Source of the DNA: Promethearchaeota archaeon | GTDB lineage: Archaea > Asgardarchaeota > Lokiarchaeia > Sigyniarchaeales > SOKP01 | Length of the DNA: 64,000 nt | Assembly (NCBI GenBank): GCA_016839705.1 | Contig: JAEOTR010000062.1 | Span: 38,365-102,364, forward strand | Reading direction: 5' to 3' | In this document: one piece after another, positions 12,901 through 28,371 of the stretch | Layout of the letters: every line of letters begins with the position of its first letter | Position numbering within the stretch: the stretch's first letter is position 1 | Position numbers and translations under genes: made by a program | The notes under the pieces: model-generated | Database searches by the model: none | Seen by the model: the letters and a program-made list of their open reading frames with translations, nothing else | Told to the model about the DNA's origin: nothing

Positions 12901-13290
12901 ATGGGAAAAGAAAAAGAAAAAGATAAGGATAAAAAAGATAAGGACAAAAAAGATAAAGACAAAGATAAAGAAAAAGATAAGGAAAAGGAAAAAGAGAAGA
13001 AAGATAAAGATAAAGACAAAGAAAAGAAAGATAAGGATAAAGATAAAGACAAGAAAGATAAATATAAATATCCGGTTGATCAAGAGTGGAAGTTAGAGGT
13101 AAGTAAAAATCTTGATGCTATAACTCATGCTTACGAAAAAATTACAAACAAGTTTAGGGATGTTGATAATTATATACTAAAAGATGCTAAAACAAAAGAA
13201 GAATTCATAGAGAAAGTTAAAAAACAAGTTGAAGAGTTGCCTGAAGCATCTCAACAGATATTTCTTTCATTTTTACAGTCTATTGAATAG
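12901..13290 (+). CDS. Protein with N-terminal alternating-charge KD/KE tract and small helical C-terminal domain
   Basis: About 52 residues of only K/D/E with synonymous codon variation, then normal sequence. Confidence 0.75.
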   Translation: MGKEKEKDKDKKDKDKKDKDKDKEKDKEKEKEKKDKDKDKEKKDKDKDKDKKDKYKYPVDQEWKLEVSKNLDAITHAYEKITNKFRDVDNYILKDAKTKEEFIEKVKKQVEELPEASQQIFLSFLQSIE

Positions 13291-25778: not shown

Positions 25779-27314
25779 TTAGTATTTACCAATTTCTTCT
25801 TCGTCAATTTCAATATCCGAACTTTTCTTACCTACCTTCGAAACTTTTTTTATAAACCGATATGGATCAAGTATTTCATCTGAGATATTTGCGACACTGG
25901 TATGAGCACCCTGTGCACGAAGAGTGTCTTGTAATAGATTAACATCCAGATCTTTTGGGCTAATATTTTGCTTTGCAGCGAGAGCCGCTGCGGTTCCAGC
26001 CGCTTGACCCGTGCACATGCTCGGGGTACAATATCTTAATCCTCCATCAGTGAATATTCCGCATGAGATTGTTGTACCTGCTGCTAGTAAATTATGTATT
26101 TCTTTAGACACTATGGAACGATAAGGAATATCGTGAGGAAGAATCTCATATCCAAATCTACCAGTTACCTCCCAAATATCTGGAGGTTGATTATTTATAG
26201 CAATTGAATCACCAAAGGATTTTCCCTCTCGCATTTCCGCTACGGTTACCACGTGATCCCCTAAAATTCTATGCATTGTGGTTACTGGATAATTAGCAGT
26301 TTTCTCAACAAAGCAATTTTCAAAACCAGGAATCTGTTCCTTGAGTAATTTCTGAACTTCGAATGCCTGCCTTCTTAGACTAATTTCAAGATTAGTTTGC
26401 TCTCCAGCCATCCACATATGATTGTCTCCTCGTGGTCCGTACATGGGATTCATTACCCAAATCCTGCCACCCCCATGAACGCTATGTCCTGGAGAGAGGA
26501 TGATACTATCCCCCCTAATATAGGCTCCTTTCTCTCGTGCCTCCCTGACCATTCTATGTCCTCCATACATTTGACCCCATTCATCCATATGGTCTGCTCT
26601 ATATTCTAACCATTTACTAACGTTTACCCCACCAAGGTAAAATGCGGTTAATGAACCCATATTGCGTCCCCTACGCCGACCCATAGGAATTTTATCATCT
26701 AATACCGATGCTCCTGATTTCCATGCAATGTCTCCATCCCCAGTCGTATCTAATATAACTTTCCCTAATACGGCTCTTCGCCCTTCTTTACCTTCAACAA
26801 TTACACCTTTAAGCATGTCTCCTTCTCTTATGACTCCCGCTGCAAAAGAATGCAGAAACATCTTTACCCCATCGTTTTGCATCAAAGAATCAAGAAGATA
26901 CTTGTAATACTCCAGATCAAAGATAGTTTCACCGCCCCACCATCCTACATTGGTATTTAGCAACCTTTTTGGCAGGTTTTCCTCACCGTATCGTCTAATA
27001 AGACTGGCTCTAAAGGGATTCCGACGTTGTCGTTTTTCATCCACTTTTCTCATAGCACCACCTTCCATGAGACGGGAAATAAGTTCTTGTATAATTCCAT
27101 TATGTATCTCCGGATCTACTCGAGAAAAGACTGAATTAAGGCCTTGTGTCTGTTGTCCCCCCAAGCTACCAAAACGTTCTACTAAAACAGTTCTGGCTCC
27201 TGTTCGCGAAGAAGCTAAAGCGGCACCTATACCTGCTGGCCCTCCACCTACGACAATTACATCTACGTTATCAATTACCGGAAGATCTCTAGCCGGTTCT
27301 CTAACGGTTTCCAT
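25779..27314 (-). CDS. FAD-dependent oxidoreductase (FAD_oxidored/GidA-like)
   Basis: DVIVVGGGPAG, LVERFGSLGG, LDTTGDGD, IPYRSIV...NLLAAG, GQAAGTAAAL. Confidence 0.9.
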   Translation of the reverse strand: METVREPARDLPVIDNVDVIVVGGGPAGIGAALASSRTGARTVLVERFGSLGGQQTQGLNSVFSRVDPEIHNGIIQELISRLMEGGAMRKVDEKRQRRNPFRASLIRRYGEENLPKRLLNTNVGWWGGETIFDLEYYKYLLDSLMQNDGVKMFLHSFAAGVIREGDMLKGVIVEGKEGRRAVLGKVILDTTGDGDIAWKSGASVLDDKIPMGRRRGRNMGSLTAFYLGGVNVSKWLEYRADHMDEWGQMYGGHRMVREAREKGAYIRGDSIILSPGHSVHGGGRIWVMNPMYGPRGDNHMWMAGEQTNLEISLRRQAFEVQKLLKEQIPGFENCFVEKTANYPVTTMHRILGDHVVTVAEMREGKSFGDSIAINNQPPDIWEVTGRFGYEILPHDIPYRSIVSKEIHNLLAAGTTISCGIFTDGGLRYCTPSMCTGQAAGTAAALAAKQNISPKDLDVNLLQDTLRAQGAHTSVANISDEILDPYRFIKKVSKVGKKSSDIEIDEEEIGKY

Positions 27315-27530
27315 TTTTCACCATTTTCTTACTCTTTTCTATTTTTTAATAATATTAATTAATCAATCTACCTTAAAAATTTAATATTTTGATTAACAAT
27401 GAGTTAAAAATTGGAAATTCTTGTTCTAACAAGGATATTCTTTCAAGCTTTAAGAAAATTTCAAAAAGAAAAAAGAGTTTAAAAAAATTCTTTCTTATTT
27501 AATAATTAAACTTTTACTTTTTGGTAAGAC

Positions 27531-27635
27531 TTATTTTTTAGCACCTGCTTTTTTCTTAGGAGCTGCTTTTTTCTTAGGGGCTGCCTTTTTCTTAGGGGCT
27601 GCCTTTTTCTTAGGGGCTGCCTTTTTCTTTGCCAT
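27531..27635 (-). CDS. 34-aa Lys/Ala/Pro-repeat microprotein (histone H1 tail-like)
   Basis: MAKKKAAPKKKAAPKKKAAPKKKAAPKKKAGAKK; 18-bp repeat with synonymous variation; RBS gaggag; T-tracts downstream. Confidence 0.8.
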   Translation of the reverse strand: MAKKKAAPKKKAAPKKKAAPKKKAAPKKKAGAKK

Positions 27636-27849
27636 TAGTTTTTACGACTCCTCAACATTTTTTATATTGATTAAATTTTAAAGATTAGTAAAATAAAATT
27701 TATTTTTTTTTAAAGATTTCTTTTTTCATTTATTATTAATTTCAAGATAGATGAAATCCATAACTATTACTCTCTTAAATTTATTCATTAATCAAAACAG
27801 ATATTATCAGAAAATTTCGGAAAATAATCAAAAATAAATAAAAAGAACC

Positions 27850-28371
27850 TCAATTTCCTGCTTTCTTTATTATTCGATTTGTAAGTTCGAGAAAAGCAGT
27901 TTCCACATTTTCACCAGTTTTAGCAGATGTTTCAATATAGAAACAACCTTCATTTTCTGCATATTTTTCTGCTTCACTCCGATCTACAATCTGACCAATT
28001 TCAGGGATTAAATCGGATTTATTTCCTATTATTACCTTAGGTACGTCCATTTTCATGATACTACGCATTTCTCTAAGCCACGTTTTCATACTTGAAAATG
28101 TATTTTGTCTTGAAAGATCAAATACAAGCAATGCCCCCGTAGCCCCCTCATAAAAGCTACGATGGAGAAATTTAAATCTTTCCTGACCACCAATATCCCA
28201 TATATGGAGTTTTGCATATTTTGTTGGTTGATATTCTACTGTTTTTGTTAAAAAATCAACACCAATAGTCACTTTATATTTCAAAACAAATTGGTTATGT
28301 ACAAATCTGTGTAGTAAACTTGTTTTTCCTACCGCACTAGGACCAACAATTATAACTTTATGTTTATCCAT
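27850..28371 (-). CDS. Rab-like small GTPase (intact G1-G5)
   Basis: GPSAVGKT, TIGVDF, WDIGGQERF, GNKSD, ETSAK. Confidence 0.95.
   Translation of the reverse strand: MDKHKVIIVGPSAVGKTSLLHRFVHNQFVLKYKVTIGVDFLTKTVEYQPTKYAKLHIWDIGGQERFKFLHRSFYEGATGALLVFDLSRQNTFSSMKTWLREMRSIMKMDVPKVIIGNKSDLIPEIGQIVDRSEAEKYAENEGCFYIETSAKTGENVETAFLELTNRIIKKAGN

Follow-up and report, generated by a model that had tools for sequence, protein, structure and literature searches.

A histone-tail-like lysine, alanine and proline repeat microprotein predicted in one family of Lokiarchaeia

Background

In a recent proteomic survey, Loki chromatin was found to be dominated by histones, with few alternative chromatin proteins. 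The HLoB histones are abundant, localise to the nucleoid and co-localise with DNA; their tail lysines are methylated, and possible acetylation was reported on a tail peptide containing KKAAPKK (preprint 10.64898/2026.07.02.735847). Linker-histone homologues were reported not to have been found in archaea (PMC6136690), and H1-like proteins are thought to be bacterial in origin (PMC9239181, PMC9769792). H1-like proteins that lack the globular domain act on chromatin (PMC9769792), and KPAA-repeat peptides bind DNA in vitro (PMC9239181). Repeats rich in lysine, alanine and proline (K/A/P) also bind RNA (PMC12818456) and polyphosphate (PMC9239181).

Here, a short K/A/P repeat ORF was analysed in a window of 64,000 nucleotides (the whole stretch of DNA under study) from a Lokiarchaeia genome of 3.36 Mb, with 31% GC and an estimated completeness of 93%. 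A first-pass annotation of the window had read the ORF as an unannotated gene for a minimal DNA-condensing protein resembling the tail of linker histone H1. Literature searches found no description of this K/A/P microprotein family, nor of the K/A microproteins of 15-45 aa from other organisms that are described below.

Gene structure and expression signals

The ORF encodes Met-Ala followed by four KKKAAP units, a fifth unit of variant sequence and a final KK (Table 1). It is real and stands alone, as the first-pass annotation had it; the strand, which had not been given, is minus. Recounting returned the same 17 lysines and no acidic residue, in a peptide of 3.4 kDa with a pI of 11.2 and a net charge of about +17, and no other short ORF of such composition occurs in the 3.36-Mb genome. 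The ribosome binding site, TATA-like element and downstream T-tracts named earlier were all located. Given the promoter position, the mRNA would be leadered, its 5' UTR measuring some 55-60 nt, and the ORF, which has its own BRE/TATA element, RBS and T-tracts, appears to form a monocistronic gene that would be expressed by itself.

Table 1. Coordinates of the peptide gene, its signals, its neighbours in the window and the tailed histone of the same genome
Feature	Position	Strand or location	Basis or remark
K/A/P repeat microprotein ORF, 34 aa, five 18-bp units, ATG to TAA	27531..27635	minus	ORF check
Shine-Dalgarno GAGGAG, 12 nt 5' of ATG	27648..27653	minus	sequence
BRE-TATA-like promoter 12-mer at -85	27709..27720	minus	sequence; motif kept in orthologues
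T7/T6/T5 tracts, likely archaeal intrinsic terminator, 43-67 nt past stop	27463..27487	minus	sequence
Ras/Rab-like small GTPase, upstream neighbour, no conserved partner	27850..28371	minus	domain search and synteny
FAD-dependent oxidoreductase, downstream neighbour, no conserved partner; cluster named Ca. Lokiarchaeota	25779..27314	minus	
Tailed HLoB-type histone	G000:C81:82805-83038 (L288)	other contig than peptide	begins MAKKKAPAKK before fold

Selection on the peptide had been argued from synonymous differences between the repeat units. Within the gene this argument is weak by itself, the two synonymous changes being confined to unit 4; units 1-3 are identical in DNA, and the case for selection must therefore rest on relatives, where it proved strong. 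Elsewhere in the window, a 129-aa protein with a long N-terminal tract of alternating Lys/Asp/Glu is encoded at 12901-13290 on the plus strand; it is kept in relatives, and the same protein recurs near the peptide locus (L002, L420).

Orthologues and selection

Using pattern searches, DNA searches and locus extraction, one free-standing copy per genome was recovered from 48 genomes of a single Lokiarchaeia family, namely 29 of the 54 genomes of the host's own genus, 17 of the 42 of a second genus, one of a third genus, and G012. The G012 copy (genus g5) was discounted because its contig, G012:C50, is 100% identical over 2044 bp to G078:C16 and is probably misbinned. The check proposed in the first-pass annotation, a pattern search of Asgard genomes for frame-preserving orthologues, thus gave copies in 47 genomes, with length changes that stay in frame. 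Metagenome contigs yielded eleven more copies, and a search with promoter plus RBS for divergent members found none. That annotation had overlooked the gene was borne out by exact look-up: among 15 billion predicted proteins, a set in which the flanking proteins do occur, none of 11 peptides was present.

Orthologue statistics were computed from the 47 complete peptides, G012 included. These are 27-38 aa long and consist of 50% K, 28% A and 17% P (K+A+P 95%), with 0.3% Arg and no D/E. Charge (+12 to +19), lysine runs of two to three residues and proline in the spacers (243 of 249) are conserved, and repeat number is free. Between orthologue pairs of equal length, 1241 of 1580 base changes (79%) fall at codon position 3, and pN/pS is about 0.08, a value biased low by the pair filter of at least 85% identity. 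Codon positions 1 and 2 are constrained and position 3 is free in all members; only 4 of 1539 orthologue codons have T at position 1. The RBS spacing of 12 nt is kept in 37 of 47 orthologues, the promoter motif lies at -85 to -87 in 24 of 47 as against none of 2339 control ORFs of the same genome, and a T5 run occurs within 90 nt past the stop in all 47, a figure taken without a control in AT-rich DNA. Five orthologues (L008, L010, L080, L127 and L131) carry an in-frame relic of further repeats past the stop, a tolerated truncation by one or more repeats, a Lys codon being one base from TAA/TAG, or possibly a sign of read-through.

The orthologous genes stand apart from their neighbours, at median distances of 340 and 260 nt, and a conserved operon partner was rejected since the immediate neighbours vary. 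Despite this shuffling, 45 of the 108 ORFs that flank orthologues, from both main genera, map into the 64-kb window, which is 1.9% of the genome, whereas none of 113 ORFs flanking histone loci do so; the shared region indicates vertical orthology.

These data bear on the reading in which the ORF has no functional peptide product and is either a leader peptide that acts in cis as a lysine sensor or a microsatellite that is not translated. Its low complexity, the three units with identical DNA and the mostly open state of the two other frames would suit such an origin, but the third-position bias, the conserved ATG, RBS, promoter and stop, and the in-frame length changes argue for a selected peptide. 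Moreover, a leader-peptide role was rejected because the gene downstream differs between orthologous loci, lies on the other strand in 20 of 44 cases, and stands behind the T-tracts at the median gap of 260 nt. This reading was considered extremely improbable, and by the comparison of orthologous sequences the gene is real, with selection acting on the peptide.

Distribution in Asgard archaea

The free peptide is absent from about 45% of the genomes of its own genus and from most of the family, including several own-genus genomes that are 97-100% complete. It is patchy even among genomes of high completeness and is therefore not core chromatin. Outside the family, an HMM and two patterns gave no clear member in 154-161 genomes of the order and class, except for one divergent 28-aa ORF in a genome of another family of the class (G276:C26, L319). 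This ORF has an SD-like motif and combines a K/A/P core with an acidic end; it is possibly a distant relative. Three single-contig genomes of the sister family contain tailed histones, and the free peptide was not found in them. In other Asgard classes the C-terminal pattern, run on 400 genomes in all, found none, which is to be read as 'not found in those searched', since this pattern is less sensitive and recovers only about half of the known members.

Several apparent extensions of the range were rejected. Three Thorarchaeia-like matches and one Loki match to the C-terminal pattern proved internal to larger proteins, which were assigned by sequence and context as an eL32-like ribosomal protein, a LarC-like protein and an RNA polymerase tail. 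Records titled Hermodarchaeota and Odinarchaeota (L176, L199) hold the same peptides as the Loki-family genomes G058 and G112 and did not extend the range.

Relationship to the tailed histone

The host genome encodes five histone-fold proteins, of which one has a K/A/P tail (Table 1). The N-terminal tail of this HLoB-type histone, and not H1, is the closest sequence match of the peptide; the first-pass annotation, which likened the peptide to an H1 tail, had not seen this tail of the cell's own core histone. The search pattern recovered the tailed histone as a second gene in most genomes. No tail start is commoner than MAKKKAPAKK, which also ranks among the top two peptide starts; several of the orthologous peptides consist of nothing but repeats of this motif. 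The Lys-rich tail motif of HLoB histones is thus present in the peptide, and in 5-mers the peptides reach a cosine similarity of 0.81 with Loki histone tails, as against 0.23 with bacterial look-alikes; both comparisons are partly circular because the tails were gathered with the same search pattern as the peptides. The histone fold (PF00808) was not found at the peptide locus: the five matches of the genome lie elsewhere, and no ORF with the fold follows the stop. By sequence, the peptide reads like an HLoB tail multimerised without its fold.

Descent from a histone tail would be plausible on this resemblance. Caution is due because the tails were selected by pattern, because these K/A/P words are found again in disordered parts of other Loki proteins (among them the RNA polymerase A' tail, Rpo7 and MoxR), and because the two genes are unlinked and show no sequence sharing particular to the same genome. 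Their promoters and RBSs are also unlike. No same-genome sharing of synonymous bases was seen between peptide and tail, nor was gene conversion or covariation with the tail of the same genome, tail length included. Tails are about 13 aa long in the two peptide-carrying genera and have medians of 15-24 aa in genera mostly without the peptide; this coincidence of short tail and free peptide holds between genera, shows no such trend within genera, and is a lead only.

A peptide so close to the tail could act as a decoy or sink for tail modifiers, titrating a tail methyltransferase, a HAT or SIR2, or storing methyl or acetyl groups. That its motif and N-terminus are nearly identical to those of the HLoB tail fits this proposal, as do the methylation of HLoB tails and the action of Loki HAT and SIR2 on Lys-rich tails. 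However, bacteria and phages, in which tailed histones of the Loki type are not expected, have many peptides of this sort, and the Loki peptide does not covary with the tail sequence or length of its own genome. A decoy function, which would be compatible with DNA binding and not exclusive of it, was judged distinctly unlikely.

Two further observations were made during these searches. The tailed-histone genes L067 (G049), L097 (G083), L038 and L084 are apparently truncated or frameshifted soon past the tail, through assembly error or as real tail-only derivatives. In RNA polymerase A', the same K/A/P repeats stand ahead of a conserved C-terminal mini-domain (L322, L324, L326, L329-L333 and L336; L022 and L024).

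Free-standing peptides in bacteria, other archaea and phages

A search of all GTDB species genomes gave at least 57 free-standing K/A microproteins of up to 60 aa among the 110 non-Loki matches listed. Their hosts, among those matches, are Verrucomicrobia, Planctomycetes, Acidobacteria, Bacteroidota, Nitrospirae, Bdellovibrionota, Gammaproteobacteria and a few other archaea, and an SD-like motif precedes 44 of the 57. Phages carry such microproteins too. A leader of the same kind is fused in bacteria to folded partners, which among the 34 matches listed include SWIB (6), DksA/TraR (4) and HU (3). The K/A microproteins are possibly a large overlooked class, and from its sequence the Loki gene appears to be a Pro-rich, lineage-specific form of this widespread, unannotated group.

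The earlier placement of the gene in a histone-bearing lineage close to eukaryotes stands as far as histones are concerned, with five histone genes in this Lokiarchaeia genome. Proximity to eukaryotes adds little, because the gene is restricted to a single Loki family, with look-alikes in many bacterial phyla, other archaea and phages; the Loki peptide is not eukaryote-specific.

Among individual matches, K/A microproteins with SD motifs were also seen in Iainarchaeum, Pacearchaeota and Methanosarcinales-labelled bins (L164-L283) and in phages (L381-L418). Two Methanosarcinales-labelled records encode Lys-rich microproteins of 30-34 aa with a Cys-rich tip (L215:158-250, minus strand; L268:229-333, plus strand). 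In two Planctomycetota records (L220:166-405 and L270:1-156, both minus strand) a Lys-rich leader is followed by a segment that by eye resembles a bacterial histone fold; L220 had no Pfam match, and both are candidate tailed bacterial histones.

Comparison with H1, Hc2 and related families

Searches of Pfam, NCBIfam and PDB with the peptide gave no curated match. The winged-helix globular domain of H1 (PF00538) is absent from the 34-aa ORF by Pfam, and a genome-wide search for it gave no match, the control of that search being uninformative. The HC2 profile (PF07382) matched 0 of 30 members at E<=1, and the nearest named Atlas cluster, at 0.91, is 17% HC2. Rv3852 was matched weakly by 11 of 30 members, with a best E of 0.0025, which falls short of a curated cut-off. 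The peptide is thus not H1, lacking the globular domain, not Hc2 by profile, and not a histone, lacking the fold.

What stands of the proposed resemblance to an H1 tail is composition, the K/A/P make-up of H1 C-terminal tails and of bacterial H1-like proteins; no homology to H1 or Hc2 was detected. With 95% K+A+P and no D/E, the peptides have the basic C-terminal-type composition of H1 and would, judging from that composition, be disordered. As in H1-like proteins that lack the globular domain, the predicted product is a free-standing, basic, K/A/P-rich protein without a fold. A long tract of KKAPKK/KKSPKK repeats, broken by an assembly gap, was noted in G006:C299 (L323) and possibly belongs to a longer H1-like protein with SPKK motifs.

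Discussion

Since charge, lysine runs and proline spacers are kept, repeat number is free and early stops are tolerated, the peptide would be an extended, disordered binder of polyanions; such features are what one would expect of a polycation driven by its composition and not of a folded or site-specific binder. The match to the histone tail, together with DNA binding by KPAA repeats (PMC9239181) and the action of H1-like proteins on chromatin (PMC9769792), makes an accessory DNA-neutralising and bridging role in trans the most likely. The bacterial fusions of the same leader to nucleoid-type domains (SWIB, DksA/TraR and HU, among the matches listed) were counted as support; counted against were the patchy gene, the partly circular k-mer comparison, the unlinked histone gene and the binding of RNA by KPAA repeats (PMC12818456). 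With somewhat better than even confidence, we regard the product as an accessory polycation that would bind nucleic acid, most likely DNA, in trans, by analogy with globular-domain-less H1-like proteins. A disordered 3.4-kDa polycation of about +17, with lysine doublets and triplets set between Ala/Pro spacers of two to three residues, would bind DNA regardless of sequence and would both neutralise and bridge the backbone. Alongside the histones of the cell it would serve as an accessory factor in compaction, in effect a free, multimerised copy of the HLoB tail acting like the H1-like proteins, and the enzymes that mark lysines of the HLoB tail may act on it as well.

A length of 27-38 aa, the charge and a strong Shine-Dalgarno sequence would also suit short basic ribosomal peptides, and the ligand could instead be RNA or the ribosome, the peptide being an accessory component of the ribosome like bS22 or eL41, a general RNA chaperone or a translation factor like the KPAA region of PhaF. 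The PhaF repeats bind mRNA through their lysines (PMC12818456), and the Toxoplasma H1-like protein associates with ribosomal proteins too (PMC9769792). On the other side, neither repeat number nor register is fixed, nonsense truncation at the C-terminus is tolerated, and Arg is at 0.3%, unlike in ribosomal peptides with fixed contacts; nor is there a link to a ribosomal operon, and the distribution is patchy. Searches of Pfam, NCBIfam and PDB gave no match to bS22 or eL41, and the Loki length is not fixed, varying with repeat number. An RNA ligand was therefore held to be unlikely, if a serious competitor.

A scaffold or counter-ion for other polyanions such as polyphosphate or acidic proteins, as with AlgP, was considered very unlikely. 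The KPAA domain of AlgP organises polyphosphate granules (PMC9239181), and Loki proteomes hold many very acidic tracts. Yet a search of the 93% complete genome for PPK1 and PPK2 came up empty, with positive controls, and an acidic partner peptide was rejected because no small acidic ORF lies near any orthologue.

A free polycation resembling a histone tail, in Asgard archaea that have histones, would offer a cheap, synthesisable test case for tails acting in trans on hypernucleosomes, and would also allow one to ask whether tail writers recognise free tails. The proteomic survey of Loki chromatin would miss such a peptide, because its gene is absent from search databases and trypsin destroys the product. 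A stronger version, in which the peptide is a tail-only HLoB paralogue or the source module of the tail and serves as an in-trans equivalent of linker histone on hypernucleosomes with the same lysine marks, was thought doubtful. Were it true, K/A/P modules would shuttle between microproteins that stand alone and the folds of chromatin proteins (histone, HU and SWIB), and such shuttling would offer a general way for histone tails and the H1 C-terminal domain to arise. Limits on the impact come from a range that is narrow and patchy, from the common bacterial analogues and from the ease of convergence in low-complexity sequence.

Among known systems, the HLoB tail shares with the peptide its N-terminus, K/A/P motif, genome and lineage, at a 4-5-mer similarity of 0.81-0.86. 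The peptide differs from the HLoB histone in having no fold, in repeating the motif four to six times, in being a separate, unlinked gene, and in its patchy distribution, the histone being widespread in the order. The bacterial, archaeal and phage look-alikes (15-45 aa, MAKK start) are likewise free-standing, with the same start, about 56% Lys and almost no acidic residues, but their Pro content is 2% as against 17% in the Loki peptide and their spacers use Thr/Val; at such low complexity, transfer and convergence are not separable. Chlamydia Hc2 (PF07382), the KPAA regions of Pseudomonas AlgP and PhaF, and mycobacterial Rv3852/HupB-type tails also have Lys-rich Ala/Pro repeats in variable copy number, but are much longer or fused to folded domains. 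Kinetoplastid H1, Toxoplasma TgH1-like (91 aa; PMC9769792) and the H1 C-terminal domain resemble the peptide in being K/A/P-only without a fold, and the globular-domain-less proteins also in being encoded by a free-standing gene alongside core histones. The Loki peptide is archaeal, is about one third as long as these H1-like proteins, has no demonstrable homology to them and, unlike H1-like proteins and the H1 C-terminal domain, rarely has a CDK-type S/T-P-x-K site (2 of 47 peptides). By analogy, it probably belongs with the globular-less H1-like kind, as an ultra-short, archaeal, tail-like form.
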